A DNA stretch of 64,000 bases from an uncultured Lachnospiraceae bacterium (GCA_964632165.1 CAZWCZ010000001.1:77681-141680); one strand, 5' to 3'. Shown: positions 35,526 through 50,977, counted from the stretch's first letter. Translations and numbers: made by a program. The notes: a model not told the origin generated them from the letters alone.

Positions 35526-38500
35526 CTACTCCACACCACCTACTACATAGTCTTGTGCGCTGCTCAATCCCAGATCATAGCGAATCACATCTCCTGCTTT
35601 GCAATTCCATCCGGCATCTTTCATATCAGAATATAGTTTTGTCTCTTCCCACTGTTTGAATTCCACACTCATTCCTGAAGCCGTCTCAAATTCAATGGTA
35701 AATCTCACTCCAAGATATCCTTCTTTTATAAAGAACTCTTCTTCCCCTGAAATGCTGTTCCGTTGCTTATACCATTCAAAATCCTTCTGCTTCTCTTTTT
35801 CCACAACGTACAATTCTGTCGGCAAGGAAAACTCCCCTATCCAGCACGCATCACTCTCTTTTTGTGTCAGATGTATGATTCCATTTGACTGTCCGTTGCG
35901 TTGATCCATTTCACTCCCGGCCCTTACAAAACAATATTTTTCTCCGTCAGAAATAACTGTATAATAAACACAAACTTCCTTTCTTTTCGCTTCTTCGGCT
36001 GATATCAGAAAATAATCCGCCAAAATCCTGACGCTTTCTACTTCATCCGCAAACGCTCCCTCTAATAATGATATCTTATATGTAAAATGATACCCTTTCT
36101 TTAATATAAGAGCCTGTATACCTGATGAAAGTATTTTTCTAGCCGCAATATCTGTAGTATCTGTGATCTCAAATTTCTGTTGCTGTACAGATGCTTTCTT
36201 CTCCCATACAGCATACAACACCAAATGATCCGTTAATATCAGCTTTGTCCCCGGTTCATAAAAATTTCCGCTGCCATCCGCTTCATCATTCCATCCGGCA
36301 TAGATATATCCCTGCCTTTGAAAGAACAGATTAGGAAGCACCGTCGCTGAATAAAAATATCCGGCATCCGCTTCATACTCCTCAATCTTATTTGTTGTGT
36401 GAAAAATACAGCCTGACATCGTTACCGTACATTCATGATTTATCAACGCAACTGCCTGCACTTCTGATATCGCCTGCCAACTGTTCACATGAATTCCAAG
36501 CGTCGTCCCTTTCTGTCCGATTTTTCCTGTCCCATATAAAATCCCATCTTCTCCGAGTGCGTAGGTCGACTGCCAGTCCCGTTTTCCACTGACAAACACT
36601 TCTTCCTCATACGAAACACTTTCAGTTACTTTTACTGCAATATCACGATACTTTCTCCCATTACTGACATTCTGCATTGTCGTGTAGTTATTTTTCGTTA
36701 CACTTTCAACACTTTCACCTATCCCGAGAGCACCCCATACATCATGTCCGGACGCCCACAAACTTCCGTCTTTCGCCAGCCCAATCACCGCACTGTTTTC
36801 TATCGTATACGATAGAAAATCCTCTTCGGTTGTAAATTCACCTATATGGTATAAAACAAGTTTTTCAAAATAGACAAGTTCTCCTGCCATCCGGTTCATC
36901 TTTTCAGGCAAAGGCGACCGCATATTCAATGAATCTGTAATCCAATAAAATGCTCCGTTTTCTAATTCAATATAGAACAGCATTTCTCCATCGGAGCCAT
37001 ACAATGCATATGTTTTTTGTATTTTTGCTTCCGCTTTTCCGAAACAGACTGTTTTGCTTTGACATTCACTTAAGGTATCATCCGGACTGTTTGTTTTCAT
37101 ATAATGGATAATCCCATTTTCTTCCTGTATCAGAGAAATACTGCACTGATGATCGCAATAAAGTTCCTTTGCGTAACACACTTCCGAAGAAATTTCGGAC
37201 TCTGTCAGTTCCCATTCCTCCAAGCCTTCTCTCCTTGTCCTGATGTTTCCATTGCCGTCTACTGCATGATATACATTAATTTCACTCTCCGTATATTCGT
37301 CAAGATACTCATCATACGTTTTCGTTACATATCCGGTGCTCCAAATTGCTTTTATTTCCGTTTCCGACGGATATCTTGCAGTTGAAAGGAGTTTCCATGC
37401 CGTCCCATTCCAATAATATGCCTTTCTCTCTTTATTTTGTCCCGCATGATAGCCTTCATAGTAAAATGTCGTATCTATCGTTCCTTCTTCTGCTGCTCTT
37501 TTCTTTAAGGTTTCTTTTTCTGTGCCGTCCGCCGTAATCCAGTAATAGTACTGACATCCATCCGCAGTTTCATAGTAAATTCCGATACTTCCTGTCGTAC
37601 TCCCAACAATCTTTTCGATTTTTTCCGGTGAATGGAGAAGCTGCAACAGAGTTACCTTTATTGTTTTGTTCTGATAATGCATTTTCCACAAGGTTCCATC
37701 CGCTTGTTGAAAAACCAGCACGGAATTATCATTAAAATAAATGTGCTCCGGAGTCGCCTGCACATTTATCTTTTCCAGCTTCTCTCCTTTTTTCAGAAAT
37801 ATAAATCCATCCTTATCAATAAAAAAGTATACTGCTGCCACGCTGTCGATACCATTATTAAAATCTGCATAGATCACTCCGCCATCCACAATATCCGGAC
37901 TTTTATCTTCTAATACAGATACACTTGTTTGCAAATTTCCGGTTCCTTCGTTTGGATGATAGGTTACTGTGTATCCACACTTGATACAATAATAATCCGA
38001 ATACTCCCGACCATACGCGATCACACTTTCCGCACCCGGCTCCGTGTAGATCACTGTCTTTTCCTGAACATTCCCTTTTGTTCCCAAAGTATCTTCTCCT
38101 CCTCCGATCATCGTTACCGCCGGTACTTTTATCTGTTCCAGCCGACATCCTAAAAAGGCTCCGTTTTCTATTTGTGCTGTTTTATCCGTAAATGCAATCT
38201 CATCCAGATTTTCATGATAAGCAAATGCATATTCCCCTATTCTGACCAAGCCTGAAAACTCCGGTGGCAAAAGACGGAGTGAAAATTCAACTGCCTTTTC
38301 CCAATTCTGCATCACTAAAGTTTTCTTTTCCTGTGAGTAAGATCCATTATAATAATAAACGATTTTTCTCTTTTCTTCCTGTCCCTCTTCTGCAGTTTCC
38401 CATTCTTCGCTGAGTTCTGCATTTTTGTTGACTGCAGACCGAAAAGCACTTTCCCCGATTTTTTCTACATACTCTCCGCCGTTGATCTTATGGAGTGCTT

Positions 38501-40172
38501 CACAATAAAGAAATGCATATGGCAATATTTCCGTTACGGTATCCGGTATCGTAACCTCAAGAAGTGTGGTATTGTACACATAATAATTATTCTCATATAA
38601 ATAGTAATGTCCCGCCCCGTTCTTTGTCTCCCGGATATTTTCTCCGACACTTTCTATCTTTCCATTTCCGAGAACGCCGTATTGATAGCTGATCTTACTG
38701 TAATACGTATATGTCGCATACTCATAGCAGTACACATAACTACCATGTGACATATCATATTGATACTTTATTGTTTTCGTGTAAGCAGACCCGGTAATTT
38801 TTTCATCTTCCTCAACAGAATGATATGTTTCCATACTTCCGCCAATTGTTCTTACAATATAACTTTCTTTTCCGCAAAAAATTATTTCCGGGAACGTCAA
38901 TTCCACAATATACTTTATATCTTCACTTTTTACCTCATACTTATTGCTGTCCGTTCCATACGTTTTTGGATGTACATAAACTGCATTTTCTCCATCTGCA
39001 ATAAAATACCAGCTGTTTCCTCTGCTGTCTGTCCCTACAAGATACTTTTCCCCGCGACTGGCTGCTTCATTCTCTTTTATCAGACCCCCTGATGTTTTTC
39101 CCTGATAGGACGCAAGATACATCATACCATCTGAAATTTTCTCCAATGTGTATCCCTCATCAGTAGAATAATAGCGGTGTTCTGCATCTGTTTTTTGATA
39201 AAATTTCGTTGTCACGGCAGTGGGCGTCGGAGTTGGTTCCTCAGGTGCTTTTGTTGCTTCAGGTGTGAGCGTTCCTTCATTTTGTTTCTCTCTATACAGA
39301 AAACTAAGTGTCAACACGCCTTTTCCAAGTTCACCGGATCTTAGGATTCGCGAAAATTCACTTTTTTCTTCTGTGCTTTCCACAATATTTCCATTTTCTG
39401 TGCTAAAACTATATCCCTCATAAGAATACCCGGAAAATGTCTGTGCCTGTTTTATAACGGTTTCTCCATAAAAATATTTCTCCGTGGATATCGAAAGAAT
39501 TTTTCCGCTTTCCGTATCCAACGCCCTTGTTATGACAGTGGTAAAGGAAAGTTGAAGATTTATCTCTCTGTCGTACGAATTCTTTATTGCATTTAATGCC
39601 GCATCAGACCACATTTCTTCCCACTCATCCAATGCAGATTCCATACTCTGATAACAATAATACTCCTTCCCGATATCTGCACCATCCTTTTCTACCCGCA
39701 AAGAACGACTTGCATAAACCTTCAGCTGCCCATTTGTCCGAATCAGTTCTTCCTTTGTATAATTTTCTAATATCCAGGACATCAGCTGTGCCGCATCCAA
39801 TTGCCTCGTTTCCCAGTAAATTCCGTCTGAATCCGGCTCCGTGGTAAGTTCCGGAATACGCGTTGTCTTTAACAGCAACATTCCATTATAATCATCAGCT
39901 GTTAAATACTGCGATGCTCCCTGTGTCTTTACCTTGTGTAAATACCAGTTTCCGGTCTTATAACGGTATGTTGCCGTTTCCTCTGCTTTTTTCTGCTTGA
40001 AAGACAGCTGAAAATCATTATCACTTGTCATTTCATACGACTCAAACGCATATACACGGTAGTCTTTTGTAACAAGAATCAGGGCAATAAAGCACAGTAC
40101 ATATCCAAACAAGTAACCTTTCTTAATAAATAACATTCCATCCGCTGCTGAATTTGCTGGTATCCACTCCAT
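35526..40172 (-). CDS. giant N-terminally anchored surface protein (BspA-type LRR, Listeria-Bacteroides repeats, RCC1-like blades)
   Basis: 1548 aa with TM YLFGYVLCFIALILV. LRR_5-like IPDTVTEILPYAFLYCEALHKI / IGEYAFAYHENLDEIAF. GYIYAGWNDEADGSGNFYEPGTKL and YTVTYHPNEGTG repeats. RCC1-like DGSLWASGHDVWGALGIG. No LPXTG. The start may be Met13 (40136). Confidence 0.75.
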   Translation of the reverse strand: MEWIPANSAADGMLFIKKGYLFGYVLCFIALILVTKDYRVYAFESYEMTSDNDFQLSFKQKKAEETATYRYKTGNWYLHKVKTQGASQYLTADDYNGMLLLKTTRIPELTTEPDSDGIYWETRQLDAAQLMSWILENYTKEELIRTNGQLKVYASRSLRVEKDGADIGKEYYCYQSMESALDEWEEMWSDAALNAIKNSYDREINLQLSFTTVITRALDTESGKILSISTEKYFYGETVIKQAQTFSGYSYEGYSFSTENGNIVESTEEKSEFSRILRSGELGKGVLTLSFLYREKQNEGTLTPEATKAPEEPTPTPTAVTTKFYQKTDAEHRYYSTDEGYTLEKISDGMMYLASYQGKTSGGLIKENEAASRGEKYLVGTDSRGNSWYFIADGENAVYVHPKTYGTDSNKYEVKSEDIKYIVELTFPEIIFCGKESYIVRTIGGSMETYHSVEEDEKITGSAYTKTIKYQYDMSHGSYVYCYEYATYTYYSKISYQYGVLGNGKIESVGENIRETKNGAGHYYLYENNYYVYNTTLLEVTIPDTVTEILPYAFLYCEALHKINGGEYVEKIGESAFRSAVNKNAELSEEWETAEEGQEEKRKIVYYYNGSYSQEKKTLVMQNWEKAVEFSLRLLPPEFSGLVRIGEYAFAYHENLDEIAFTDKTAQIENGAFLGCRLEQIKVPAVTMIGGGEDTLGTKGNVQEKTVIYTEPGAESVIAYGREYSDYYCIKCGYTVTYHPNEGTGNLQTSVSVLEDKSPDIVDGGVIYADFNNGIDSVAAVYFFIDKDGFIFLKKGEKLEKINVQATPEHIYFNDNSVLVFQQADGTLWKMHYQNKTIKVTLLQLLHSPEKIEKIVGSTTGSIGIYYETADGCQYYYWITADGTEKETLKKRAAEEGTIDTTFYYEGYHAGQNKERKAYYWNGTAWKLLSTARYPSETEIKAIWSTGYVTKTYDEYLDEYTESEINVYHAVDGNGNIRTRREGLEEWELTESEISSEVCYAKELYCDHQCSISLIQEENGIIHYMKTNSPDDTLSECQSKTVCFGKAEAKIQKTYALYGSDGEMLFYIELENGAFYWITDSLNMRSPLPEKMNRMAGELVYFEKLVLYHIGEFTTEEDFLSYTIENSAVIGLAKDGSLWASGHDVWGALGIGESVESVTKNNYTTMQNVSNGRKYRDIAVKVTESVSYEEEVFVSGKRDWQSTYALGEDGILYGTGKIGQKGTTLGIHVNSWQAISEVQAVALINHECTVTMSGCIFHTTNKIEEYEADAGYFYSATVLPNLFFQRQGYIYAGWNDEADGSGNFYEPGTKLILTDHLVLYAVWEKKASVQQQKFEITDTTDIAARKILSSGIQALILKKGYHFTYKISLLEGAFADEVESVRILADYFLISAEEAKRKEVCVYYTVISDGEKYCFVRAGSEMDQRNGQSNGIIHLTQKESDACWIGEFSLPTELYVVEKEKQKDFEWYKQRNSISGEEEFFIKEGYLGVRFTIEFETASGMSVEFKQWEETKLYSDMKDAGWNCKAGDVIRYDLGLSSAQDYVVGGVE

Positions 40173-41184
40173 CTTCCGTAATAATTTCTATCCCGTATCG
40201 ATAAGCAAACGCGCCATATCCGATATACGAAACATTCTTCGGAATGACAACTTCTTTTACCTTATTTCTGCTCAACCACTCCGGACTTTCATTCGCAGAA
40301 AATGCCGCCATGCCAATATACCTTAATGTAGAAGGAAGTACTATCCTCGTCAATTCTTCACATCTTAAAAATGCTGCATCTGCAATCCACTCCGTGCCTT
40401 CAGGAATTACAATTTCAGTCAAAGGTGCATTTAAAAAACAAGAATCACCGATCCTTTTTAATGTAGAAGGCAATACAATGGAAGTCAGCTCACTGGTTCC
40501 AAGAAATTCTATTCCGGTAACTCCTTCGCTGATATGTACCTCTTTTATAAAGTTGGCATAGGTTGTCTTGCCCCATGGTTCATATTGTCCTATTTCGCTT
40601 TTCGCTTTTGCCCCTTCCCACATATCTCCCGTTCCATTCACGATCAATGCAGCATCGGAATATTTCACATTTTCTTTTGACCAGAGACTAACTGCAATAT
40701 TCTCCCCGTATTTCCACTCATATTGCAAATACGGATATTGCTCTGTTATATCCTGATACCACTTTTCCCCCGGAAGATCTCCTGCCAAATCGGGTGTCGG
40801 AGTCGGCAATGCTGCCGATGTTTCCGTTACTGCAGGTGTTTCCGTTACCGATGATGTTTCCGTTACCGATGATGTTTCCGTTACCGATGGTGTTTCCGTT
40901 ACCGATGGTATTATCGTCATTGTTGGAGTCGGGACTTCTGTTAGCGTTATGTATGACCTTGGTGCAGATGAAATTTCAGATATTTCTTCCGGTTCTACGC
41001 ATTCGGACAGCACCGGTGTATCTGACATCTGTATACCTGCAGGCAGAGTAATATTTGCATCTTCAGAACACTCATCACGATATGACATCAAAAATACTGC
41101 CGTTCCTGCAATTGCCATGGCAAAGATCACTCCTGCCAGCACTTTTTTCACCATCTTTCTTTCAAATTTCTTCCCTATATACAT
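40123..41184 (-). CDS. N-anchored BspA-type leucine-rich-repeat surface protein with a (S/P)xVTET repeat stalk
   Basis: TM VLAGVIFAMAIAGTAVFL, five VTET hexapeptide repeats, and LRR_5-like LTSIVLPSTLKRIGDSCFLNAPLTEIVIPEGTEWIADAAFLRCEELTRIVLPSTL. Confidence 0.7.
   Translation of the reverse strand: MYIGKKFERKMVKKVLAGVIFAMAIAGTAVFLMSYRDECSEDANITLPAGIQMSDTPVLSECVEPEEISEISSAPRSYITLTEVPTPTMTIIPSVTETPSVTETSSVTETSSVTETPAVTETSAALPTPTPDLAGDLPGEKWYQDITEQYPYLQYEWKYGENIAVSLWSKENVKYSDAALIVNGTGDMWEGAKAKSEIGQYEPWGKTTYANFIKEVHISEGVTGIEFLGTSELTSIVLPSTLKRIGDSCFLNAPLTEIVIPEGTEWIADAAFLRCEELTRIVLPSTLRYIGMAAFSANESPEWLSRNKVKEVVIPKNVSYIGYGAFAYRYGIEIITEDGVDTSKFSSGWNVIY
40820..40909. repeat. 5 x 18-bp tandem repeat (gtttccgttaccgatgrt) encoding the VTET stalk
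   Basis: Units counted by hand at 40820, 40838, 40856, 40874 and 40892. Units 2=3 and 4=5 are identical. Confidence 0.9.
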
Positions 41185-41273
41185 GTAGCTTTCCTTTTAA
41201 CTAATTTTTCCCTTTCTTTGTTTTTCCCCTATTTTTATCATATACTATTTTACATATTTTGGCAATTAGTATT

Positions 41274-41969
41274 TTATTTCGTCAAAAAAACGCTATCTGT
41301 CCGGTCTTTTTTACGTATGTAAACATTTGCATCCATACAATTTTCATAAAACACATCTTCGCCTAGCGGCCAGCCCTGAAACACCACAATCAGCATCGGA
41401 AAACTCAATTTCTGTGAACGATCCGTCAGAAAATACGGAACATAAAATTCATATTCCATACCATATTGTCTTGCGATCCGATTATGTTCACATATCATAT
41501 CCGCAACATTCATTTCCAGATATGTCTGTATGATTTTTCTGTTTTCTTCTTCCTGTCCGGTCAATACATACGGCATCTTTTTGCTCCATGTGCCTGTAGA
41601 TTCCACATGATCGACAGTTTCCTGTGCAGTAAAGAAATATCCTCCGTCTTCTTCCAGCCATACCAGCAACGGAATATGCATCCTGCTCTCTTTTTGCTTT
41701 TCCTCATTCCCTGAAATCCCAATCCGGGTAAACCAAGAAGAGAAAAAAGTTTCCTCCAACAGATAAAGTTTTACCTCCGTCGTTTCTTCCATGACTTCCG
41801 TCATCTTCCATGCCGAGGCATCCACCGCATAGAGCAGGCTTTCCTCCATTCTCCTCTTCTCATCCTTTATTCCCCGATACTGCATTTGTGCAGAAAATAC
41901 CTCCAAAAAACAATAGCCAAACAAAATGAAAAAAAGTAATGCCATATGTCCCTGCTTCACATTTACCAC
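41274..41969 (-). CDS. N-anchored hypothetical protein (candidate minor pilin / assembly factor)
   Basis: 231 aa with TM ALLFFILFGYCFLEVF. Overlaps the upstream gene by 7 nt. Confidence 0.5.
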   Translation of the reverse strand: MVNVKQGHMALLFFILFGYCFLEVFSAQMQYRGIKDEKRRMEESLLYAVDASAWKMTEVMEETTEVKLYLLEETFFSSWFTRIGISGNEEKQKESRMHIPLLVWLEEDGGYFFTAQETVDHVESTGTWSKKMPYVLTGQEEENRKIIQTYLEMNVADMICEHNRIARQYGMEYEFYVPYFLTDRSQKLSFPMLIVVFQGWPLGEDVFYENCMDANVYIRKKDRTDSVFLTK

Positions 41970-42355
41970 CGTATCATTCGATACAATATCACCCTTTTTA
42001 TCGAAGCTTCACTGAAACATATCATAAAAAAGTCCCCTGCTTCAAGCAAAATCCTACCCTCTTCCGCGAGTATGTTTTCCCATTGCGACTGTATCAGAAT
42101 CTCTTCCTTTCTGTATAATCGGAACGAAATTTCGTAAGAAGTACTTACACTCAAGACCTTTTTTCTCCATGTCTCATACTCTTCATAAGAAACACTTTGT
42201 TTTCGCTCCGCCATATCAAAAAAACTTTCCGTTATGTATTCCGCATAATCTAATCTGGTTTCTTCTTTCCAATATTCCGAAAACAGCATCCATGCTCCCA
42301 GCAACAGCAGCATAAATAATATCATATCCAATGTTTCTGAACATATTTTGTACAT
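41963..42355 (-). CDS. N-anchored hypothetical protein
   Basis: 130 aa with TM MILFMLLLLGAWMLF. Abuts the upstream stop with no gap. Confidence 0.5.
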   Translation of the reverse strand: MYKICSETLDMILFMLLLLGAWMLFSEYWKEETRLDYAEYITESFFDMAERKQSVSYEEYETWRKKVLSVSTSYEISFRLYRKEEILIQSQWENILAEEGRILLEAGDFFMICFSEASIKRVILYRMIRW

Positions 42356-42763
42356 CTATTTCTCCCAAAGCAATGCCTTTCCATAATACCGTTTTCCGCA
42401 TACATGGAGACAAACTTCACTTTCCTTCCGAAAACTGTAGATGCCTTCCTCCTGCAATATTTCCTTTATCTCCTGCCAGGAAATAAGATATCGGTACTCT
42501 TTTCCGTTTTCGGTCTGTTCCTTTTGGAATTCTTCCAGAAATATTTCCTCTCCTTCCCCTGTCAGACGCAATCTCTGACAAAATGCAGTATAATCATTTA
42601 AGCTGCAGCACCCTTCACGGCAGATGCTTTCAAAGAAAAGGACGGTCTGTGCCTCTTTCCAGGACGAAAGGAAATACCGGTACTGTGACTGCTTCATACC
42701 TGCCGCCGTTAAAATCAACAGACTTCCAAGTATGATTAAAACGCCTCTTTGCAACTGCCTCAC
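42356..42763 (-). CDS. N-anchored hypothetical protein
   Basis: 135 aa with a GTG start after GAGGAG. TM GVLIILGSLLILTAAG. Confidence 0.5.
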   Translation of the reverse strand: MRQLQRGVLIILGSLLILTAAGMKQSQYRYFLSSWKEAQTVLFFESICREGCCSLNDYTAFCQRLRLTGEGEEIFLEEFQKEQTENGKEYRYLISWQEIKEILQEEGIYSFRKESEVCLHVCGKRYYGKALLWEK

Positions 42764-42769
42764 ACGCTA

Positions 42770-42928
42770 CTCCTCATTCTTTAGCTGAATGGACGGATGC
42801 GAAATCATTCCATTCAATGTCCGATATACACTTAAAACCATTTTTGTCTGCGAAAACAATAGCATTAAGCACAAAGCAAATACTCCTAAAGATACAGCAA
42901 ATAACAGATACTCCTTTCCTGATCTCAT
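42770..42928 (-). CDS. 52-aa Flp-pilin-like small hydrophobic protein (not in the ORF track)
   Basis: Own translation: MRSGKEYLLFAVSLGVFALCLMLLFSQTKMVLSVYRTLNGMISHPSIQLKNEE*. The ATG overlaps the TGA of the upstream gene (ATGA). It fills an otherwise unexplained 160-nt gap. Confidence 0.5.
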
Positions 42929-43383
42929 TTTTTCTGTTCAAAAGAAACCGCTGCAACTTCTCCATTTTCATCAAATTCAAGCTTTGACATAAAGGAAGAT
43001 GACGGATTGATATAGCTTTCCTCATTCGCGCTGTCAGAAATGTCGGTAAGCACCTTAGAATCCGATGCATGAATTTCCGGATATGTATACTCCTGTGCTT
43101 CTTTACTCTTAGAAACCAAATATCCGTTCTTGACTTTTATGCTGATGCCGTCTTCTTCCGTTAAAGTTTTGATAAGATCAATGATCTGGCTGCCTTTGAC
43201 TGTTGTATCATCATAGACCTTCAATTTTGCATTACTAAAACCGGATACAATATCATCATAATCCTTTAATGAACTGTTAATACTTGCATTCCCTTTTTTA
43301 TAAATAGTTACCGCCACAAAACAAACTGCTACTACAAGCAGAATCCCAACTGCACTTTTAATAAAATTCTTTGACTCACTCAT
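42925..43383 (-). CDS. N-anchored hypothetical protein (pseudopilin-like; paralog of 43386..43805)
   Basis: MSESKNFIKSAVGILLVVAVCFVAV aligns with MNVSKEFLMEAVGLSLLVALLMLGV. RBS AAAGGAGAA upstream. Confidence 0.5.
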   Translation of the reverse strand: MSESKNFIKSAVGILLVVAVCFVAVTIYKKGNASINSSLKDYDDIVSGFSNAKLKVYDDTTVKGSQIIDLIKTLTEEDGISIKVKNGYLVSKSKEAQEYTYPEIHASDSKVLTDISDSANEESYINPSSSFMSKLEFDENGEVAAVSFEQKK

Positions 43384-43385
43384 AT

Positions 43386-43805
43386 TCAATTCTCCTTTTC
43401 TTTCATTCTGATATACTCTACATTTTTGTTTTCTCCCCGTACTACATGGCACTCATATTCCTGAAATACACTCATGCCAAATTCTGAGGTATCCTCTCGA
43501 AGCATTGCTGCTTCTTTTCCTGTTTTTACTTCATATGTATTTCCCGATGTTTCAATCCGCACAGGAAGTGCATACTGATCTACCATTGCCTTGATATAAC
43601 TGATCGCCGTAATCCCATCCACTGTTTGTCCGTCATACTGTACAATTTCGTACTCCTGCATTCTCGTAAGTGTCTCTTCCTGTCGTTCCGCCATATAATT
43701 CATCAGTCCGGATGCACTTTGGAACATCTTAACTCCCAGCATTAAAAGTGCTACAAGCAAAGACAATCCTACCGCTTCCATTAAAAATTCTTTACTTACA
43801 TTCAT
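43386..43805 (-). CDS. N-anchored hypothetical protein (pseudopilin-like)
   Basis: 139 aa with a short polar leader and then a hydrophobic helix. Confidence 0.5.
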   Translation of the reverse strand: MNVSKEFLMEAVGLSLLVALLMLGVKMFQSASGLMNYMAERQEETLTRMQEYEIVQYDGQTVDGITAISYIKAMVDQYALPVRIETSGNTYEVKTGKEAAMLREDTSEFGMSVFQEYECHVVRGENKNVEYIRMKEKEN

Positions 43806-43812
43806 TTTGTTT

Positions 43813-45402
43813 CTACATCCTCATTTCTTCCAAAATCCGAAATACTTCTGAAACTCCCTGCAGCGATGTAAGAAGAAACGGCAGAATAAAATATGCCGAC
43901 AATGCCAATGCTGATGGTATTTTGGACAACAGATCCATGCCGTCTTTTTTTTGTTCTATTTTAATTTCAGCTTCCATTTGTGACATTTTTTCCATCATTC
44001 TTCTATTGTTCTCAACTTCTGCAAATGCTTTTCGAATGCCGACTTCGTCTACCGCAAGAAACCCCTCTGCCAATTCACGAAATCCTTCATGCAATGCTCC
44101 CGCCTCTTCTCGTAACCGTCTTAATGCTTTTTCCGGTCCGGCCGCATAAGAATTAATGCAAATCCTCAGTTCTCTCCTAAACAAACGGCTGAAAATCTCC
44201 ATATCTTCCAAAAGTTCCGGAATCGTTGCATCTGCCATTCTCCGTTCCATAAGAACAACTGACTGAAATTGTCTGATCTCATACTCTGCCTGCTGAAGCA
44301 GAAGTTTTCTCCGGTACCATAGTTTCACAACAGGTGCTGCAAATGCAACTCCTCCACACACAACAGAAACCAGAAAAATCATTCCATAATTCCTTATACC
44401 GATATACAAAAGAAACATGTTCATTCCAACAAACACTGTTGCCATATAAAAGATCATACGAAGCAGAAAATTTCCGTACGTATCCCTTGTATCTGTCTGG
44501 AGCAACAACTTCCGTATCCATTCACTAAACCGGTTCTCCTGTTTTTCAAGCTGCTCTTCCATCCGCATTTTGGAGAAAAACTTCTTTTCTGCATTTTGTT
44601 CCCGAAAAAAATATATTTCTTTCGCATTATTGATAAACGAATATACAGCGTAAGATACCAGCAGCGTTATCACCTCTATGATTTTCCCAATCCCACCATA
44701 AAAAGCAGCCAGGTCAGGTTCAAACTCCAATCCCCACTGTCGAAGAATCGGCATGGCATAAAATGGTGCAAGTGATACAAAGGTATAGCCTGAAAATTCA
44801 TGACTTCTTTTTTTTCTGCGATAAATTTCTTCCATCACGATCAGCCGCAAATGTTCCAGATTCTCAGAAAAAAGGGAAGAATCTTCCGATATTTTAATGT
44901 CTCCTTTTTCTGATGTTTCAAACGCCTGCACTAAAAACAATTTCAAATACTGATTGTACTTTGTATACAATATATAATTGCGTACCTGCTCTCTTCTGTC
45001 ACTCTCCGACAGAATACGATACAGTCTGGAAGCATGAAGGCGTAATTCTTCACCGGTTTCCTCTGCCGCATCTTTAATGGCATTAGCCACATTTTGCTCT
45101 GACATATAAAAATGTTTTACCCTGGAAAGAAACGACAGCATCTCTTTGTATATCCTATACTCTGTCTTTTGAATACGGCTTCCGGAAATTTCCGTATATA
45201 CAATATAAAGAGTAAACACAAGACCTCCTGAAAAGTACAGAGCCGAAGGGATCCCCAGAAGCATATTCCACCAAAAGAAAGCGAGTAAGGCAACGGATCC
45301 CACCACGATTATCCGGCGTTCATCCTCTTCCACCAGTTGATTCAGCCTTTTTTCTCCATATGGGCAAAGATTCTCATACTTTTTTGCAAGTCGGGATATC
45401 AT
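43813..45402 (-). CDS. polytopic membrane protein with two-repeat TadB/TadC (T2SS-F-like) architecture
   Basis: The pattern [TM pair - about 150-aa helical cytoplasmic domain - TMs] occurs twice. The ATG overlaps the ATPase stop. The position immediately after the ATPase matches tadA-tadB-tadC order. Confidence 0.5.
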   Translation of the reverse strand: MISRLAKKYENLCPYGEKRLNQLVEEDERRIIVVGSVALLAFFWWNMLLGIPSALYFSGGLVFTLYIVYTEISGSRIQKTEYRIYKEMLSFLSRVKHFYMSEQNVANAIKDAAEETGEELRLHASRLYRILSESDRREQVRNYILYTKYNQYLKLFLVQAFETSEKGDIKISEDSSLFSENLEHLRLIVMEEIYRRKKRSHEFSGYTFVSLAPFYAMPILRQWGLEFEPDLAAFYGGIGKIIEVITLLVSYAVYSFINNAKEIYFFREQNAEKKFFSKMRMEEQLEKQENRFSEWIRKLLLQTDTRDTYGNFLLRMIFYMATVFVGMNMFLLYIGIRNYGMIFLVSVVCGGVAFAAPVVKLWYRRKLLLQQAEYEIRQFQSVVLMERRMADATIPELLEDMEIFSRLFRRELRICINSYAAGPEKALRRLREEAGALHEGFRELAEGFLAVDEVGIRKAFAEVENNRRMMEKMSQMEAEIKIEQKKDGMDLLSKIPSALALSAYFILPFLLTSLQGVSEVFRILEEMRM

Positions 45403-47006
45403 GCTTTGCTCCCCTCCCATCCAAAAAACAGTGCAAAGGAACGAAACTCTTCCGGTCCGAGTTCATCTTCTGCACGCAAAAAAGTTGCCTTGCTTGGTAT
45501 CCCAACAAGTTTCCCTTTTTGCTCCTTCTCATCAAATCGATAGATTTCCCGGATTTCATACGGTTTCTCCCTTCCTGATACTTTCTGCCTCGGAACAACC
45601 TCATGGATATACTGCACATATCGTTTTCCAAACCGGTTTCGAAGATGAATGTCAAATCCAAGACCGGCAGCAGCATCCTGCATTGCAAGCTCTTCCTTCG
45701 CATAACCACCGATACACAGTTTTGCATTCACAAAATCCGTTACCATCTGTTCTGTTGTAATATAATGTGCCGAAAAAAACAGTTGCGTTGCAATTTTTGA
45801 AATATCCATTGCCAGGATCGCAACCGAAGCGGAATTGATCTCTCCGATCGCAAATATCTGTCCTGTCGTCTTTCTTGCAAATGCCAATACATCTTCCGCA
45901 GGTGTTGCCTGTGAAATACGCATCGTCATTGTATTTCTTTCCGGAAGAAAGCTCCGCACATTCAGTTCAAACGACTCCGACTCTATGACCCTTAAATTTC
46001 TTTCCCTTTTTGTTTCCTTTAAACATGCCCGGAACAATGTCGTTTTCCCTGATGCCATTTCTCCGGTGATCGCTATGTTCCTTCCGCTTTGCACTAACCA
46101 TCGGATCAGCTCAGCAAGAAAGCTTTTCCCCTCTTTTCCCGGATAAAGGCTGTCCAGTGTCACTCCGGAAACGGCATCAAATTTTCGTATCAACCCGACC
46201 CACACGTCTGTGACCGGCGGTCGCGATACGGAAACTCTTCTTCCATCTGCCGTATCTACCACAATCATCGGATGATTCTGTGTCAACTCTCCCGCCCGTG
46301 CGTCCCGTATCAGATTACGAAGTACTCTTGTGAGTTCCTCTTCCGTACCGAAACTTAAAAATTTAAGCCATACCATCTTCCCTCGGATCAGTACATGGAT
46401 TCCATCCCAGTCATAAAATTTTTCATTTTCTTCCTTCACTAACAGTTCCCGGTAACTATATGCTTTGATCGCATATCCATTCATTCCAAGCTGTATTTCT
46501 TCAATACATCCTTTCTGCTGATTGATACTGTCGATTGTACCCAGCCCTACAGTATCCGCAAACAGCAGCTGTGATAACACCTGGATCCGATCTTCCGGGT
46601 CAAGCTTTAACTCACGTGCAATAAATTCTCTGCGAAGCATTTCCTCAGTCACAACGACATGCTCCTGTCCCTCTCCAAATCCCGCATGTTCCCAAAATTG
46701 AAAGAATCCGTATTCTTCCTTTATCCGGTCTCCTGCATAGATCAGGACTTCAAACATCTGTTGTCCGGTCAGAAGTTCCGGATAATCTGTCGGCAACAGA
46801 TTTTTGATCTCTTTTTCTGTCAGTCCCAGTTCCCGTACTAAATAAGATCGAATCAGTTCCTTTACTGCTTCCTTTGCTCCGTAATTCCCCGAGCAGCAGG
46901 TACGGATGCTTTTAGACAGCATTCTCCGATACTCTTCCTGATTCCGGTATTCTCCCTCGCTTAATCCGGCATCTGCAATCGGCATTTCCGTATATTCGTT
47001 CAGCAT
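45399..47006 (-). CDS. CpaF/TadA-like type II/IV secretion-family ATPase (divergent)
   Basis: GLIRKFD, Walker A ITGEMASGKTT, RVIESESFEL (Asp-box position) and IFAIGEINS (Walker B position). The ORF is open to 47168, but that would overlap the upstream gene by 140 nt, so Met55 with RBS AAGGAAAG was chosen. Confidence 0.7.
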   Translation of the reverse strand: MLNEYTEMPIADAGLSEGEYRNQEEYRRMLSKSIRTCCSGNYGAKEAVKELIRSYLVRELGLTEKEIKNLLPTDYPELLTGQQMFEVLIYAGDRIKEEYGFFQFWEHAGFGEGQEHVVVTEEMLRREFIARELKLDPEDRIQVLSQLLFADTVGLGTIDSINQQKGCIEEIQLGMNGYAIKAYSYRELLVKEENEKFYDWDGIHVLIRGKMVWLKFLSFGTEEELTRVLRNLIRDARAGELTQNHPMIVVDTADGRRVSVSRPPVTDVWVGLIRKFDAVSGVTLDSLYPGKEGKSFLAELIRWLVQSGRNIAITGEMASGKTTLFRACLKETKRERNLRVIESESFELNVRSFLPERNTMTMRISQATPAEDVLAFARKTTGQIFAIGEINSASVAILAMDISKIATQLFFSAHYITTEQMVTDFVNAKLCIGGYAKEELAMQDAAAGLGFDIHLRNRFGKRYVQYIHEVVPRQKVSGREKPYEIREIYRFDEKEQKGKLVGIPSKATFLRAEDELGPEEFRSFALFFGWEGSKA

Positions 47007-47028
47007 GTGATATATTCTTTCCTTTAAT

Positions 47029-47838
47029 TCAGGATAGGAATACTCTTTCCTCGATTTTTTCTGCTGCCTTCCCGACAGACTCCATAAATTCATAATTTTC
47101 TTCCTTTTTTCCCACTCTTTCATTTTTGAAAAGAAATTCTGCACATCTTCCTTCAGCCAGTGCATCACGAAATCCGACGTTGCACGGGATCACTCCAACG
47201 ACTGTTTCCTCTTTACCAAGATACCTGCTTTCATATTGTTTCATGCCGTATTTGGACGACTTTAGATACTCTCCGAATAAAATCCCAACCTTTTTCCCGC
47301 ACAACATATCACGATTTTTACTGTATGCCTCCCATGCCCATGGATTTTGCGGAAGTACTACGATAACAACATCCGCCTGTTTCAGACAACCTTCGTTCTG
47401 TTTTTGATATCCGCTCCCGGCATCCAGACAGACCAGATCATACTCTTTTGCCAAATGTGCTTTTATGACATACTGTTCCAGTTCCGTTGTATTTCCGCCA
47501 TGTACTGTATTTTCTCTACATCCAAGTCCCGGAAACAATGCAGCCGACGTAAATGGAACGGATAATGCACAGCGCCTTACGGATGCTTTTGTCAGCATTC
47601 CCTGCTTACAGGCAAGAATCAATGCTGCCATCCCGCTGCGTGCATAAACTTCTTTTCGGGTCTCCAGCTTATACTTTGCATCCAACCCCTGTTCCAATGC
47701 CCATCCCTCTGCTGCCGAAGAAACTGCCATCTCTGTCTGCGGATATTTTTTGCCAAGCATGGCGACTACTGCACACATTGACGAACTTACCTTTGCCTGT
47801 CCTTTGACCGGAGACCAGAATGCCAGGATTTTTCCCAT
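47029..47838 (-). CDS. ParA/MinD-fold protein with a degenerate Walker A (TadZ/CpaE-like position), copy C
   Basis: ILAFWSPVKGQAKVSSS replaces KGGxGK(T/S). DLVCLDAGSG ... ADVVIVVLPQN is MinD-like. Confidence 0.45.
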   Translation of the reverse strand: MGKILAFWSPVKGQAKVSSSMCAVVAMLGKKYPQTEMAVSSAAEGWALEQGLDAKYKLETRKEVYARSGMAALILACKQGMLTKASVRRCALSVPFTSAALFPGLGCRENTVHGGNTTELEQYVIKAHLAKEYDLVCLDAGSGYQKQNEGCLKQADVVIVVLPQNPWAWEAYSKNRDMLCGKKVGILFGEYLKSSKYGMKQYESRYLGKEETVVGVIPCNVGFRDALAEGRCAEFLFKNERVGKKEENYEFMESVGKAAEKIEERVFLS

Positions 47839-47841
47839 TCC

Positions 47842-48468
47842 TTACCACCTTCCCAATCGTGCTGTCTGATTTTCCGGAATATCCGGAAACAGGAACAAAA
47901 TTAATTGCCGGACGGCCTCTTTCATTTGCGCAGAAAGCCGGCCGATAGGAATATCTCCTGTCTCTCCGAGATGTTCCCGTATCTTTTCGTCCTTTTCCTC
48001 CCATGGAATACATATCGTCTTTTCTGTTTTCTGTTCCGTCAGAAGTTCCAGATATTGCTGCGTATGTACTGATTCCCAGAAATTTCTGATCAGCAGGTAC
48101 TGTCTCCGCTCCCACTGCCCTATTTTCGAAAGCAAAGCCGCATGTACCGGAAGTCCGTCCGTGGCAAGTATCAGATGTCCGCATTCATACAGCCTTGGAT
48201 GCAAAACACGGTATCCAAAATCCAGAAATACAACATCATACGCTTCCTTCCGTACCGCAGCATCCGTAAGTACAATTCCGCGGTATATGGTTTCCTCCCA
48301 TTCTCCTGTCTTTAGAACATTATCCTTTGCTTCCATGATTCCAAGTAATATCTTGTGTTCTGTTCGATCTTCTATCGCCACCTTCTTTCCTGACTTCATC
48401 AGGCAGAATGCCAGATAAAGCAACACATCTTCACATTCATAACCGGCAAAGCCTACTGTGATTGACAT
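47842..48468 (-). CDS. ParA/MinD-fold-like protein lacking a P-loop, copy B
   Basis: MSITVGFAGYECEDVLLYLAFCLMKSGKKVAIEDRT ... YDVVFLDFG ... HLILATD follows a MinD-like strand pattern but has no GKT/S. Confidence 0.4.
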   Translation of the reverse strand: MSITVGFAGYECEDVLLYLAFCLMKSGKKVAIEDRTEHKILLGIMEAKDNVLKTGEWEETIYRGIVLTDAAVRKEAYDVVFLDFGYRVLHPRLYECGHLILATDGLPVHAALLSKIGQWERRQYLLIRNFWESVHTQQYLELLTEQKTEKTICIPWEEKDEKIREHLGETGDIPIGRLSAQMKEAVRQLILFLFPDIPENQTARLGRW

Positions 48469-49199
48469 TTTCCTTCTCCATCCCCTCCTAAAAAAATAGT
48501 CATGCCCCAATGTTCTGCAACAGGCGGTCGGATTGCCGTAATCTTTATCCCATCCGGCCGCTCCCACTGCCATATAGGAGCATTTTGGGTAAGTTCTCCC
48601 TGTTTTTCATTTTGGATGATGACGCGGATGACTCTCTCCTCTTCCTCAAAGGACACGTTTAGAAATGGGAAAGAATATACCATATTACCTTTTTTCAATT
48701 TTATACGGCTCTCTGAATTTTCCTGTCCGGATTCCTTTGCACATTCTCCAAATAAGATCGCATCACCTCCCAGTCTGAGCAAATTTTCCACAAGTCCTGC
48801 TCCCCTCCTTTTCAGCAGCCGTTTTACGAAGAAATTCTGTTTTTCCTCCCAGGATAAAGGCATCCCTTTTCTCCTGTTCATAAGGTACACTCTGTCCACG
48901 TCCTGCTCTGTAAAAACTGTCTTCCCCTCAGCTCCAAGTTCATTCAGAAGACAATACCCCATACCCGTCTGCCTGTCTCTCTGCTTCATGTATAACAACA
49001 GATCCAATTTTTGTTCCGCCGTCAGATATCCTGACTGTTCAAACGGAAACAGCTTTGCTTCCATCACCTCCTCCGTTATTCCCTCTTTTTTGAATAAGAT
49101 CCTTGATATTGCTTCTTCTTTTTCCTCTTCCGTCATGTAAACTCCGTTTTCATCAGACAGGTTCCCTTCCAATAATTTTTCTGCCAGACTTTCTCCCAA
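48453..49199 (-). CDS. stand-alone paralog of the CpaF-like ATPase N-terminal domain (no ATPase core)
   Basis: IIQNEKQGELTQNAPIWQWERPDGIKITAIRPPVAEHW aligns with LIRDARAGELTQNHPMIVVDTADGRRVSVSRPPVTDVW of 45399..47006. The ORF ends where the P-loop domain would begin. Confidence 0.55.
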   Translation of the reverse strand: MGESLAEKLLEGNLSDENGVYMTEEEKEEAISRILFKKEGITEEVMEAKLFPFEQSGYLTAEQKLDLLLYMKQRDRQTGMGYCLLNELGAEGKTVFTEQDVDRVYLMNRRKGMPLSWEEKQNFFVKRLLKRRGAGLVENLLRLGGDAILFGECAKESGQENSESRIKLKKGNMVYSFPFLNVSFEEEERVIRVIIQNEKQGELTQNAPIWQWERPDGIKITAIRPPVAEHWGMTIFLGGDGEGKCQSQ

Positions 49200-49210
49200 A
49201 ATCGTATATG

Positions 49211-49975
49211 CTACCTTTTGTTTTTTTCTTGCCTTGATTCTAATTCCCGCCTTTTTGTCACCTCCTTTTCCCTTTCTAACATTTTAAGTACAATTTCATC
49301 CGGAAGATATGCGACCGGACTTTTTTCCTGTCTCTGTTCTTCCGGGTACTTAACAAGATACAACTCTGTGTCCCGATATGTATCACAGTCATAACGCGCA
49401 GAAGAAAGCAACAATATTTCTTCTTCGCTCAGTCTTAAAACGATCCCCGTCTTTTTTTCACACCGAACAAGTACTTTCTCTGCCAAAACAACATAATCTT
49501 CCGCATTTGCAAAAGAGATTCTGACATCCACCCGGTTTCCTTCTTTTAAATACTCCGGTATATCCACTTCCGTGATCAGCACTTCCCTCAGATTTTCCTC
49601 TTCTTCTGTCAGATCTTTTTTTCGGATACAGCTTCCTTCTGTTACCGGTGCAAGCAGCACCTTTCCAAAATCTTCTTCCGTCATATATAAAATACTTTCT
49701 TCATCTGAGTAACGAAGCATCCGTCTTACTTTTTCCGATGTAACAGTATCTCCGGCTTCTAAATTTTCCCCTGCGACAAATAAGTATTTTTCATAACTCT
49801 CTAACTCTTTTAAAAGTTCTTTTCGCTCCTCGTCTGCGTTCTTAAAACTCTTTATGGCAATTCCTGTTCCTGCCATCCCAGCCACTGTCATAAAAACCAA
49901 TAATCCTATGCGTGCCCTTTTCCGCCTTTTTTGACTTTGATGATTCATACTCCTCCTTATCTTGTTCTGCAGCAA
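49211..49975 (-). CDS. CpaB/RcpC-like SAF-domain protein, N-anchored
   Basis: TM RIGLLVFMTVAGMAGTGIAI, SAF-like VAGENLEAGDTVTSEKV, and EGNRVDVRISF...VVLAEKVLV (compare CpaB pGdrVDVl). Start at Met1 or Met10 (49948). Confidence 0.55.
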   Translation of the reverse strand: MLQNKIRRSMNHQSQKRRKRARIGLLVFMTVAGMAGTGIAIKSFKNADEERKELLKELESYEKYLFVAGENLEAGDTVTSEKVRRMLRYSDEESILYMTEEDFGKVLLAPVTEGSCIRKKDLTEEEENLREVLITEVDIPEYLKEGNRVDVRISFANAEDYVVLAEKVLVRCEKKTGIVLRLSEEEILLLSSARYDCDTYRDTELYLVKYPEEQRQEKSPVAYLPDEIVLKMLEREKEVTKRRELESRQEKNKR

Positions 49976-50696
49976 GCAGCAATTCTGCCGCTCTCCTGAT
50001 ATTTCTGCAAAAGTACTTTTCTCCTTCCTCCGGCTCTTGAAAAAAGCGTTCTACATCGCCGTTTTCACACGCCATGTCAAATTTTCTGCACTTCGGAAGA
50101 ACTCCTAGTCGTTTCTTTTCAATTCCGTAAATTCTGTGAAGATAATGGGGATTGCACTTTTCTTCGCTATGATAATCCGTGATAAAAAATACTGATTTTG
50201 GAATAATGGATGAATAATGATGAAAGAATTTTCGAATTTCCATTGTATTCTGCGGTAAAAAAACAGCAACCACGTCTGCCTCTTCCAATGCCTGTAAAGA
50301 AAAGGCATTGATTTTCCCTGAAATATCCATAAAATAAAGAGTTTCCCTTGAAATATTGCGGTAAAACATCAGATGTTCCAATCCGTCCGTCGGCTGAACC
50401 AGGCGGATTCCGACAGACGTTGTAATATCACCTGCCCTCCGGTCTTCTGAGATTTTCATTTCCCATAATTTTCTGAAGTACCCCGGTTCGCCATAGGGAT
50501 GGCATTTTTGCGCCCGTTCTATTCCGCTTCTGGACGGATCATAGAAAAAATAGTCCTCTAAACCTTGTCCGCCAAGATAATTGCAGCCTGCTATTACACA
50601 TTTTTCAAAATACAGAGTGCAGTACACGCTGATGGCTGCAAGATAACCGGTCACCTTACCGGCATTATCCGTTCCATCCCAAAACGCTACTTTCAT
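49842..50696 (-). CDS. ParA/MinD-fold-like protein with a degenerate P-loop, copy A (first gene of the operon)
   Basis: MKVAFWDGTDNAGKVTGYLAAISV ... ADVVAVFLPQN parallels copy C. Confidence 0.4.
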   Translation of the reverse strand: MKVAFWDGTDNAGKVTGYLAAISVYCTLYFEKCVIAGCNYLGGQGLEDYFFYDPSRSGIERAQKCHPYGEPGYFRKLWEMKISEDRRAGDITTSVGIRLVQPTDGLEHLMFYRNISRETLYFMDISGKINAFSLQALEEADVVAVFLPQNTMEIRKFFHHYSSIIPKSVFFITDYHSEEKCNPHYLHRIYGIEKKRLGVLPKCRKFDMACENGDVERFFQEPEEGEKYFCRNIRRAAELLLAAEQDKEEYESSKSKKAEKGTHRIIGFYDSGWDGRNRNCHKEF

Positions 50697-50977
50697 AACA
50701 TTGTTCTAATTTGTTAAAAGGAAAAATACAGAATCGTATCTAGGAGTATCTGAGCCCATGAAAAGGGGAAGATATGTTTCACGGAATCTCTTTACAATAT
50801 AATCATAGCTCTGCCGTTTTGATTTGTAAAGCATTTTCTGCGTTCTTAAATGTACAAGTTTTCGTATGTTTTTTGTGACATTTTTACAAAATTTTTATCA
50901 TATAAATAAATGAAAAAGCTTGCTTTTCCCTTTATTAAAGCGGCTTTGTGGACTTTTTACAAGGAGGAAACAAAAAA

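Follow-up and report, generated by a model that had tools for sequence, protein, structure and literature searches.

The described systems closest to the locus considered here are the Tad/Flp loci, exemplified by Aggregatibacter tad, Caulobacter cpa and a canonical clostridial Tad locus on the Alkaliphilus plasmid pB6464 (L022). In these loci, the genes follow one order: a CpaB-like SAF-domain protein, a TadZ-like protein, the motor ATPase TadA/CpaF, the platform proteins TadB and TadC, and small proteins anchored by their N-termini. The same order is found in a 64,000-nucleotide (nt) stretch of an uncultured Lachnospiraceae bacterium (GCA_964632165.1 CAZWCZ010000001.1:77681-141680; the whole stretch is called the window below), where a minus-strand array running from position 50696 to 35526 consists of 15 consecutive genes, g01 to g15, as judged from the list of open reading frames (ORFs) and their translations. 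The succession tadZ-tadA-tadB/C-pilins is mirrored by the gene order of this operon, which ends in two leucine-rich repeat (LRR) proteins. The core machine is supported as Tad-derived by profile comparison. With a probability of about 0.58, we take the locus to be a chromosomal, vertically inherited member of a very diverged Tad (type IVc) branch in the Firmicutes, which would build a fibre through g08–g13 with the giant LRR protein g15 docked on it or delivered by it.

Several neighbouring themes have been described in the literature. The L022 locus contains four tandem pilin genes (12168–13170; 57–76 amino acids [aa]) with an archaeal-looking RKG/SSE cleavage site, and its neighbours are fibronectin-III, DUF5057 and SLH proteins, whose lengths run from 400 to more than 1500 aa; large surface proteins are thus adjacent there as they are here. 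Tad-like loci lacking any prepilin have been noted in some clostridia, Lachnospiraceae-type included (Imam et al., 2011; PMC3244431). Going by their description, those loci have a tadC and a tadV that can be recognised by BLAST or Pfam, whereas in the present locus neither is recognisable and there is no tadV (PMC3244431). Large adhesins have been reported to dock on the tips of type IV filaments by their C-termini, as in PilY1/PilC and CpaL (PMC13533445), and another report presents RcpC as a ring or conduit on the membrane's outer face (PMC12307814). In the literature searched, no paper was found on the components, distribution or function of the present family, and DUF5704, a domain of its plasmid relatives, was likewise in none.

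The seven genes that carry the comparison with Tad are the following, in operon order.

49842..50696, minus strand: g01, 284 aa, predicted TadZ-like pseudo-ATPase paralogue (hhalign), first described as 'ParA-like A'; its C-terminal 32 aa overlap g02 by 107 nt.
49211..49948, minus strand: g02, about 245 aa, bitopic, likely SAF-domain protein of CpaB/RcpC-like type with one transmembrane (TM) segment, residues 23–41.
48453..49199, minus strand: g03, 248 aa, paralogue of the N-terminal region of the ATPase that stands alone and has no P-loop (BLASTP).
47842..48468, minus strand: g04, 208 aa, conserved soluble protein, first described as 'ParA-like B'; orthologue of the first hypothetical protein after the plasmid SAF gene.
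47029..47838, minus strand: g05, 269 aa, predicted TadZ-like pseudo-ATPase (hhalign), first described as 'ParA-like C'.
45399..47006, minus strand: g06, 535 aa, very diverged secretion ATPase of apparent TadA/CpaF type (enriched-profile hhalign).
43813..45402, minus strand: g07, 529 aa, polytopic platform, putatively with TadB-like and TadC-like halves fused in one protein; its first 4 nt overlap the end of the ATPase gene.

The initial annotation, which was made from the sequence of this stretch, had called g06 a CpaF-like ATPase, and this is borne out by profile comparison. An enriched g06 profile that includes plasmid members aligns with the TadA of L022 at 99.7% (E 1.5e-25, 345 columns; hhalign); the alignment of the same profile with a TrbB/VirB11 protein is weaker (E 5.5e-11). 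When searched against the PDB, the ATPase profile ranks CpaF best (3e-4), followed by VirB11 (1e-3) and FlaI (3e-3), whereas the single g06 sequence had FlaI as its top match. By these comparisons, g06 is assigned to the hexameric motor ATPases of TadA/CpaF type, closer to TadA than to TrbB/VirB11. The residues that are invariant in the ATPase family (G315-E-M-x-x-G320-K321-T322, E342, E347, E389 and H414) correspond in g06 to Walker A (GEMxSGKT), the two Asp-box glutamates, the Walker B glutamate and the His-box histidine. Because these catalytic motifs are invariant, the enzyme is probably active. Its N-terminal region is present a second time as g03, which matches ATPase residues 39–269, upstream of the P-loop, at 27% identity (BLASTP E 7e-13), so that the split-off ATPase N-domain of the initial annotation is indeed a paralogue of this region. 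The versions of the system on plasmids (see below) have no g03, the best match of g03 in one distant locus (L018) being the ATPase itself; g03 is a lineage-specific addition confined to the Lachnospiraceae branch.

The relationship of the platform to Tad became visible once its profile had been deepened. The profile used comprises 136 sequences, 130 representatives from an exhaustive search and five plasmid proteins having been added (Neff 6.4). With this enriched profile, and against single template sequences from one canonical locus (L022), the N-terminal half of g07 aligns with TadB residues 124–309 (96.2%, E 2e-9) and the C-terminal half with TadC residues 150–319 (88.2%, E 3e-6; hhalign). 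A shallow platform profile gave insignificant values for TadB and TadC (E 0.012 and 0.07, respectively; hhalign). Since one half resembles TadB and the other TadC, g07 is assigned as a TadB–TadC fusion, which refines its earlier description as a TadB/C-like polytopic protein. The AlphaFold2 (AF2) model of g07 is all-helical (predicted local distance difference test [pLDDT] 79), and Foldseek found no match in the PDB better than E 0.5; few full-length platform proteins are contained in the PDB.

Three proteins had been called ParA-like, and two of them can be kept in that group as TadZ homologues. Again relative to single L022 templates, g05 aligns with the TadZ-position protein at 95.3% (E 2e-8; hhalign), and the plasmid orthologues of g05 align with it over their full length (E 1.3e-12). 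A comparison of g05 with E. coli MinD is collinear over 224 columns (E 6e-4), with the P-loop, switch and C-terminal motifs in register, and the PHROGs collection returns a ParA-like match to g05 (E 8e-5). The P-loop lysine is not conserved in the g05 family, and TadZ likewise has no conserved P-loop lysine. The g01 protein, for which there is no Pfam or NCBIfam match, aligns with the g05 family at 99.7% (E 3.5e-26; hhalign) and with the plasmid TadZ-position family (E 3e-21; hhalign), making g01 and g05 paralogues. Both are thus predicted to be TadZ-like pseudo-ATPases without a conserved P-loop lysine, TadZ having been duplicated in this locus. In the window, g01 is longer than its relatives of about 250–260 aa; the C-terminal extension (49842–49948), which covers the start of g02 in a different frame, could stem from a recent stop-codon loss or frameshift. 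Conversely, the ParA-like identity of g04 is not established: at a significant level, g04 matches neither MinD nor TadZ, nor the g05 family or any PDB entry, and its link to MinD amounts to a short 'GKKVxxVD' stretch (18–31 residues). It does match the first hypothetical gene after the plasmid SAF gene (E 5e-13, 202 columns), and g04 is a lineage-specific addition to the Tad core. Profile searches of the PDB with g01, g04 and g05 returned nothing significant.

For g02, described initially as CpaB/SAF-like, the SAF part of the claim stands as likely, and a specific CpaB membership is possible. The protein matches the CpaB model TIGR03177 below its cutoff (E 1e-3), the profile of its family matches FlgA (3frn; E 1.2e-3), and its orthologues show weak matches to SAF and ChapFlgA, that of L018 being above the Pfam SAF cutoff. 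The plasmid orthologues are annotated as 'SAF domain-containing protein'.

Thus, the motor, the platform and the TadZ-like proteins are akin to their Tad counterparts by profile comparison, and no counterpart of Flp, TadE/F or TadV is recognised in the window, which places the locus outside canonical Tad without making it categorically new. In contrast to described Tad/Flp loci, TadB and TadC are fused here, TadZ is duplicated, there is a free ATPase N-domain and an extra protein (g04), and all machine components fall under the curated Pfam and NCBIfam cutoffs. When all 15 proteins were searched, only LRR_5 (g14 and g15) and Flg_new (g15) scored above cutoff, and 13 of the 15 proteins have no Pfam family at all. 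Pfam T2SSE reaches g06 at E 0.039 only, kinship of the T2SS-E/F type being seen with the enriched profiles, and the NCBIfam matches below threshold connect the ATPase to VirB11, TrbB, TadA and FlaI models and g02 to CpaB.

The arrangement of the operon is itself conserved. The order of the 13 machine genes, that is, those other than the LRR genes, is repeated in 15 distinct Lachnospiraceae loci, for which the ATPase identity is 46–64%, which shows that the arrangement did not arise by chance. Database relatives of the ATPase number 165, all from metagenomes or metagenome-assembled genomes (MAGs) of uncultured Lachnospiraceae, and the few named ones carry names such as TadA or 'T2SS/T4P/T4SS family'. 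In GTDB, the locus is found in 12 species-level genomes, all of them Lachnospiraceae MAGs from animal guts. The gene for a P-type ATPase adjoins the operon in every locus with gene calls that was examined, and an enolase gene lies nearby in most of them; the Lachnospiraceae locus is chromosomal, at a fixed position and probably vertically inherited. Within this frame, individual proteins vary in length. The platform g07 of the window and of L001 is without a segment of about 95 aa found in most relatives, and g12 has 130 aa in the window, L001 and L006 and about 428 aa elsewhere, with a Big_3 domain in the L027 orthologue.

In the window, the genes are packed closely. Gene starts were refined against orthologues and exact-match database proteins, which brought the ATPase to 535 aa and the platform to 529 aa. 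With the refined starts, junctions range from the 107-nt overlap of g01 and g02 to an 89-nt gap between g13 and g14, this being the largest gap, as had been stated, and the summed gene lengths (15222 nt) exceed the span (15171 nt). Overlaps of 4 nt of the ATGA type at two junctions suggest translational coupling. The initial annotation had counted sixteen genes, but its own list also comes to 15; the sizes of 139, 152, 135, 130, 231, 353 and 1548 aa and the order were correct, and a protein listed with 52 aa has 53. One extra ORF (42774–43070, 98 aa) overlaps g09 and g10 in a different frame and is not called in relatives. A single N-terminal hydrophobic segment is present in each of g02, g08–g13, g14 and g15. 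The operon is bounded upstream by the divergent P-type cation ATPase gene and downstream by a convergent DNA methylase gene.

The system is also carried on large Firmicutes plasmids, a fact that could not be seen in the window sequence. A metagenome scan with a g09 alignment returned a single locus, L018, which is a complete but distant system (31% identity to the window for the ATPase and 24% for g09); an earlier metagenome scan with an ATPase alignment had given no match. In L018, two hypothetical genes replace the three 'ParA-like' genes, there is no free N-domain gene, and the module is followed by a 1114-aa protein with DUF5704 and Big_2 domains. A tblastn search of PLSDB with the ATPase found full-length matches in 39 plasmid records, the hosts being Paenibacillus, Cohnella, Cytobacillus, Sporosarcina, Lysinibacillus (pBsph), Thermobacillus and Alkalihalophilus as well as Clostridium botulinum, C. 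argentinense, C. beijerinckii and Butyrivibrio. Plasmid pXO16, whose tip locus was considered as a possible relative, is absent among the matches listed. The platform protein of pBsph finds 35 plasmid records, in all but one of which the matched gene is annotated as 'hypothetical protein'. The plasmid module has a fixed order: a SAF-domain protein, two hypotheticals, an ATPase of about 620–650 aa, a hypothetical polytopic protein of about 670–690 aa and 3–4 small N-anchored proteins. In three of four plasmids examined, the next genes encode a wall-binding protein (with SLH, CWB or stalk domain) and a large one with a length of about 1000 aa. When 1.84 billion representative proteins were searched exhaustively with the platform profile as a hidden Markov model (HMM), the yield was 940 at E<=1e-3 and 596 at E<=1e-30, these being clusters at 50% identity. 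The platform family is thus sizeable but closed, and HMMER makes no connection from it to the huge T2SSF family.

Two further features of the plasmid branch concern its control and its motor. A GGDEF gene lies directly after the large surface-protein gene on P. polymyxa pPPM1a (L020 22834–23943) and on C. argentinense pRSJ17_1 (L023 24032–25105), which hints at control by cyclic di-GMP. The plasmid-branch ATPases of about 620–650 aa (L018 5908–7869; L019, L020, L023 and L024) may be membrane-tethered motors; the N-terminus of the L018 ATPase is a hydrophobic segment, which is absent from the Lachnospiraceae ATPase.

The candidate fibre components lie downstream of the platform gene.

43386..43805, minus strand: g08, 139 aa, N-anchored small protein, paralogue of g09 by common motifs.
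42925..43383, minus strand: g09, 152 aa, N-anchored small protein, candidate major fibre subunit and the most conserved operon protein.
42767..42928, minus strand: g10, 53 aa, mini membrane protein; a small ORF is called at the same position in relatives.
42356..42763, minus strand: g11, 135 aa, N-anchored small protein, conserved in all loci, paralogue of g12.
41963..42355, minus strand: g12, 130 aa, N-anchored protein, the short form of a protein of about 428 aa in most relatives.
41274..41969, minus strand: g13, 231 aa, N-anchored protein, conserved in all loci.

Of these, g09 is the best conserved protein in most loci, with 45–67% identity, mostly above the ATPase (BLAST table, 15 distinct loci). 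It shares with g08 an N-terminal M..SK.F...AVG, a TM segment, and YINP and (R/Y)DEN motifs; the K and F before the hydrophobic stretch are invariant, and the head-domain motifs are also present in the plasmid relatives. The g11 and g12 proteins are paralogues (96%, E 4e-9; hhalign), g10 shows a weak match (39.8%, E 3e-4) to the g08/g09 family in the N-terminal part of the latter, and g13 has no relative among the other small proteins. The plasmid versions of g13 align with it at 13–22% identity, and BLASTP to the L018 counterpart gives E 0.11, so the correspondence of g13 to plasmid genes rests on position. In its AF2 model (pLDDT 76), g09 consists of an N-terminal helix of 53 residues (3–55) and a small alpha/beta domain. 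This predicted layout is compatible with a pilin, part of the helix having low confidence (residues 36–49 <50). The best Foldseek match of the model in the PDB (E 0.55) is not a pilin, and PDB profile searches with g09, g11 and g13 yielded nothing significant.

As the initial annotation had stated, no canonical Flp pilin and no TadE protein could be recognised. There is no Flp match in Pfam, and the N-termini, M..SK(S/E)F...AVG, have neither G(-1) nor EY; against the four Flp-like pilins of the canonical locus, the small proteins reach at best 16.9% (E 1.5e-3), and this in the TM segment only (hhalign). The difference from L022 is one of size as well, its pilins of 57–76 aa with the RKG/SSE site contrasting with proteins of 130–230 aa here. 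A comparison with TadE, TadF and TadG was equally negative, with no TadE match in Pfam, no TadE/F match overall and <=3.9% in hhalign against the 191-aa pseudopilin-position gene of L022, which is annotated as hypothetical. No TadV gene lies nearby. The residue preceding the hydrophobic stretch varies (S, N, E, K, A or G) and position +5 is never a glutamate, so a class III signal is not evident in these N-termini, although two plasmid members have KG and then L.

In the diverged Tad machine proposed here, the TadZ-like proteins g01 and g05 would position or scaffold the apparatus, and the ATPase g06 would turn the fused platform g07. The platform would in turn extract the six N-anchored proteins g08–g13 from the membrane, and these would assemble into a fibre or a short pseudopilus through the Gram-positive wall. 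In such a structure, g09 would be the main subunit, and g08 and g10–g13 would serve as initiating or tip subunits replacing Flp, TadE, TadF and TadG. By analogy with RcpC, the SAF protein g02 might make up a ring or conduit at the membrane's outer face. Finally, g15 would dock on the fibre, or be delivered by it, via its C-terminal domain, with g14 as its partner and the LRR modules as the adhesive surface.

A number of observations weigh against this proposal. The ATPase is under every curated Pfam and NCBIfam family cutoff, and the homology of the platform is seen with the enriched profile only, Pfam, NCBIfam, PDB profile and Foldseek searches all being blank; an internal-repeat test on g07 was also negative, its two halves having no detectable mutual similarity. 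The small proteins g08–g13, putatively pilin-like at most, match no pilin, pseudopilin or solved structure in Pfam, PDB profiles, Foldseek or hhalign, and the G/A(-1) and E(+5) signature is absent from their N-termini. No A24 prepilin peptidase was found among the polytopic ORFs of the window, as the initial annotation had noted, the other large ORFs being housekeeping, and none is annotated in the plasmid neighbourhoods examined. A filament has never been observed for any member of the family. On the side of the adhesins, L026 carries an unrelated protein of 1649 aa that is anchored in the membrane by its C-terminus, with SecY2 and Asp1 coming next (L026 13609–20456), L027 has no giant protein and leads straight into ABC transporter genes, and two loci have downstream proteins of 750–780 aa that lack the C-terminal domain. 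Serine-rich adhesins are exported by accessory Sec systems like the one formed by SecY2 and Asp1 in L026.

Whether the adhesins belong to the machine turns on the last two genes and on the sites around them.

40123..41184, minus strand: g14, 353 aa, N-anchored BspA-type LRR protein with a Thr/Ser/Pro-rich linker (Pfam LRR_5 3.7e-19).
35526..40172, minus strand: g15, 1548 aa, giant surface protein with LRR_5 and Flg_new (Pfam).
35529..36152, minus strand: C-terminal domain of g15, about 200 aa (residues about 1341–1548), common to large proteins beside the plasmid versions.
41237..41265, minus strand: promoter-like site TTGCCA-17-TATGAT in the 89-nt gap ahead of the LRR genes, a consensus match only.
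50802..50830, minus strand: promoter-like site TTTACA-17-TATGAT upstream of g01, between this gene and the divergent P-type cation ATPase gene, with 10 of 12 consensus matches.

Both proteins resemble BspA-type LRR proteins with Listeria-Bacteroides repeats (Flg_new), passing LRR_5 with 69.3 bits (g14) and 60.4 bits (g15) against a cutoff of 27.7, and g15 passing Flg_new. They differ from BspA-type proteins in that each has an N-terminal anchor or signal and no LPXTG, and in that g15 ends in a domain of the type found in DUF5704 proteins. A regular-expression scan found no LPXTG-like motif in either protein and the C-termini are not hydrophobic, in agreement with the earlier statement that the adhesins have no sortase signal. 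The C-terminus of g15 matches the DUF5704 C-termini of L018, L020 and L024 in BLASTP (E 1e-5 to 1e-7), and about 200 C-terminal aa can be aligned among g15, its 1834-aa orthologue, the DUF5704 proteins of L018, pPPM1a and pBsph, and a 962-aa protein of pRSJ17_1. Among the motifs in common are KxGY.F, G(D/E)V.xY close to the terminus, and a W.GE[YF]S[LI]P-like motif of variable form. When the six C-termini were made into an HMM and searched against the ORFs of the fetched loci, just the same six came back, which does not constitute independent support. The strongest argument for counting the large protein as part of the system is this homology across the two distant branches.

The first alternative is that g14 and g15 are mere neighbours of the machine, namely ordinary Sec-exported, N-anchored adhesins that have their own promoter and are functionally independent. 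We regard this as unlikely, though with a real share of the probability; it is compatible with the machine itself being a pilus and was weighed separately from the other alternatives. It draws on the promoter-like site in the 89-nt gap, on the variation in gene content downstream of g13 among relatives, including L026 and L027, and on the frequency of the LRR genes themselves: counting those visible, several loci ending before the C-terminus of the large gene, g14-like genes are present in 4 and g15-like genes in 5 of the 15 distinct loci. Promoter-like sites such as the two listed are, however, no commoner here than in shuffled sequence, which makes both of them weak evidence. Against independence, no terminator-like site was found when the 89-nt gap between g13 and g14 was inspected, g14 overlaps g15, and 10 of the 13 informative Lachnospiraceae loci have, just downstream on the same strand, a gene that encodes at least about 500 aa, whether it is complete or cut off by the locus end. 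The homology of the g15 C-terminal domain to the plasmid DUF5704 C-termini also makes a chance adjacency unlikely. The coupling to LRR adhesins, as claimed initially, is thus partly supported: the C-terminal domain common to g15 and the plasmid large proteins upholds it, and the scarcity of g14- and g15-like genes and the possible promoter do not.

Docking of g15 on a fibre is suggested by other tip adhesins. In PilC/PilY1 and in CpaL/TadG, a large adhesin gene likewise stands beside minor-pilin-like genes and the adhesin has a conserved C-terminus. However, g15 has no sequence similarity to PilY1, PilC, CpaL or TadG, docking in this case being inferred, and its conserved element is a domain of about 200 aa rather than a terminal beta-strand that inserts into a minor pilin, as in PilY1/PilC/CpaL.

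In a second, more far-reaching alternative, the locus would represent a distinct, unclassified branch of type IV filaments, with a new kind of subunit that is pilin-like in architecture, has no class III signal and is either left uncleaved or processed by something other than an A24 peptidase, with a fused TadBC platform and with giant adhesins docked via a dedicated C-terminal domain; its plasmid form would be the long-sought adhesive or mating filament of large plasmids in Gram-positive bacteria, those for botulinum and mosquitocidal toxins included. We consider a separate branch doubtful.

A third, improbable alternative holds that the machine is a secretion device and not a pilus. A short pseudopilus of g08–g13 would act as a piston like that of a type II secretion system (T2SS) and push the giant protein with the C-terminal domain, perhaps also g14, through the wall, with no long fibre being made. 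A conserved C-terminal domain on the large neighbour in both distant branches would fit a secretion substrate, as would several different small subunits without a small Flp-like major pilin, and the wall-binding protein (SLH, CWB or stalk domains) that accompanies the large one on plasmids. Yet g14 and g15 begin with unremarkable signal or anchor segments, so that Sec could export them, there are relatives in which the machine is complete but no such large protein is present, and the conservation of g09 is stronger than a piston component would suggest.

A role in contact for DNA transfer is less probable still, and we hold it to be very unlikely. The plasmid form would be a mating-pair or aggregation pilus beside a Gram-positive type IV secretion system (T4SS), for which the thin type IVb pilus of the IncI1 plasmid R64 is the comparison, and the Lachnospiraceae copy would have been domesticated for aggregation. 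Full-length relatives do lie on large plasmids; on Butyrivibrio pCY360, the module abuts genes for VirD4-like, PrgI-family and VirB4-like proteins and a cell-wall hydrolase, and on C. argentinense pRSJ17_1 it lies beside a C40 peptidase gene. Xu et al. noted a 'pilus assembly ATPase' on pBsph together with weak homologues of VirB4, VirB6 and VirD4 (PMC4363355), and pBsph-like plasmids have been reported to be conjugative in later work (PMC13239906). Conversely, no transfer of pBsph was found in the earlier study (PMC4363355), the ATPase resembles TadA more closely than TrbB/VirB11, the place of the Lachnospiraceae locus on the chromosome is fixed, and the window, which carries housekeeping genes, has no relaxase, no VirB4 and no VirD4 coupling protein. 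MOB-suite typed all 35 of the 35 plasmids with the platform gene as non-mobilizable, despite the conjugation reported for pBsph-like plasmids (PMC13239906); the plasmid transfer genes may be too diverged for current typing.

Other origins were dropped. Archaeal FlaJ/ArlJ-type platforms carry two T2SSF domains, and such a platform is, like g07, a single protein of about 530–690 aa with two T2SSF-type halves, but an origin from an archaellum or archaeal pilus is contradicted by the ranking of CpaF over FlaI, by the similarity of the g07 halves to bacterial TadB and TadC, and by the absence of other archaellum genes. A SpoIIIA-type or T4SS-type ATPase context does not fit the gene content, and a phage or defence module is ruled out by PHROGs, which gave one weak ParA match (g05) only, and PADLOC, which gave none, for the operon proteins.

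The surroundings of the operon contain a few genes that deserve mention in their own right. The convergent gene downstream (33701–35476, plus strand), 50 nt from the g15 stop, encodes an N6-adenine DNA methylase with Eco57I-like and TaqI_C specificity domains, and a partner restriction gene was not identified. Beyond it, the ORFs at 31547–32896 (minus strand, 449 aa) and 32980–33435 (minus strand, 151 aa) have no Pfam match, and the same is true of those at 3173–5296 (707 aa), 11597–12640 (347 aa) and 54956–56053 (365 aa). A TraX-family protein (26970–27752, plus strand; Pfam TraX E 1e-39) is encoded amid housekeeping genes and is the sole conjugation gene in the window. A divergent pair of genes encodes transporters of the AI-2E family (59334–60473, minus strand; 60596–62476, plus strand), the second with a 250-aa N-terminal extension.

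Tad pili are major colonisation factors, yet standard tools are nearly blind to this operon. The family is not rare: its platform protein has 940 clusters, in one clade of uncultured Lachnospiraceae from gut and rumen it is part of the core chromosome, and about 35 plasmid carriers are found in Paenibacillus, Lysinibacillus and toxigenic Clostridium, including pBsph and plasmids for botulinum neurotoxin (BoNT). The profiles built here would let such loci be named in annotation, and the cultured hosts of the plasmids make experiments feasible. If a fibre is indeed made without a recognisable prepilin or prepilin peptidase, the definition of type IV filaments would widen, and the locus would offer a testable model for how Gram-positive bacteria mount very large adhesins.

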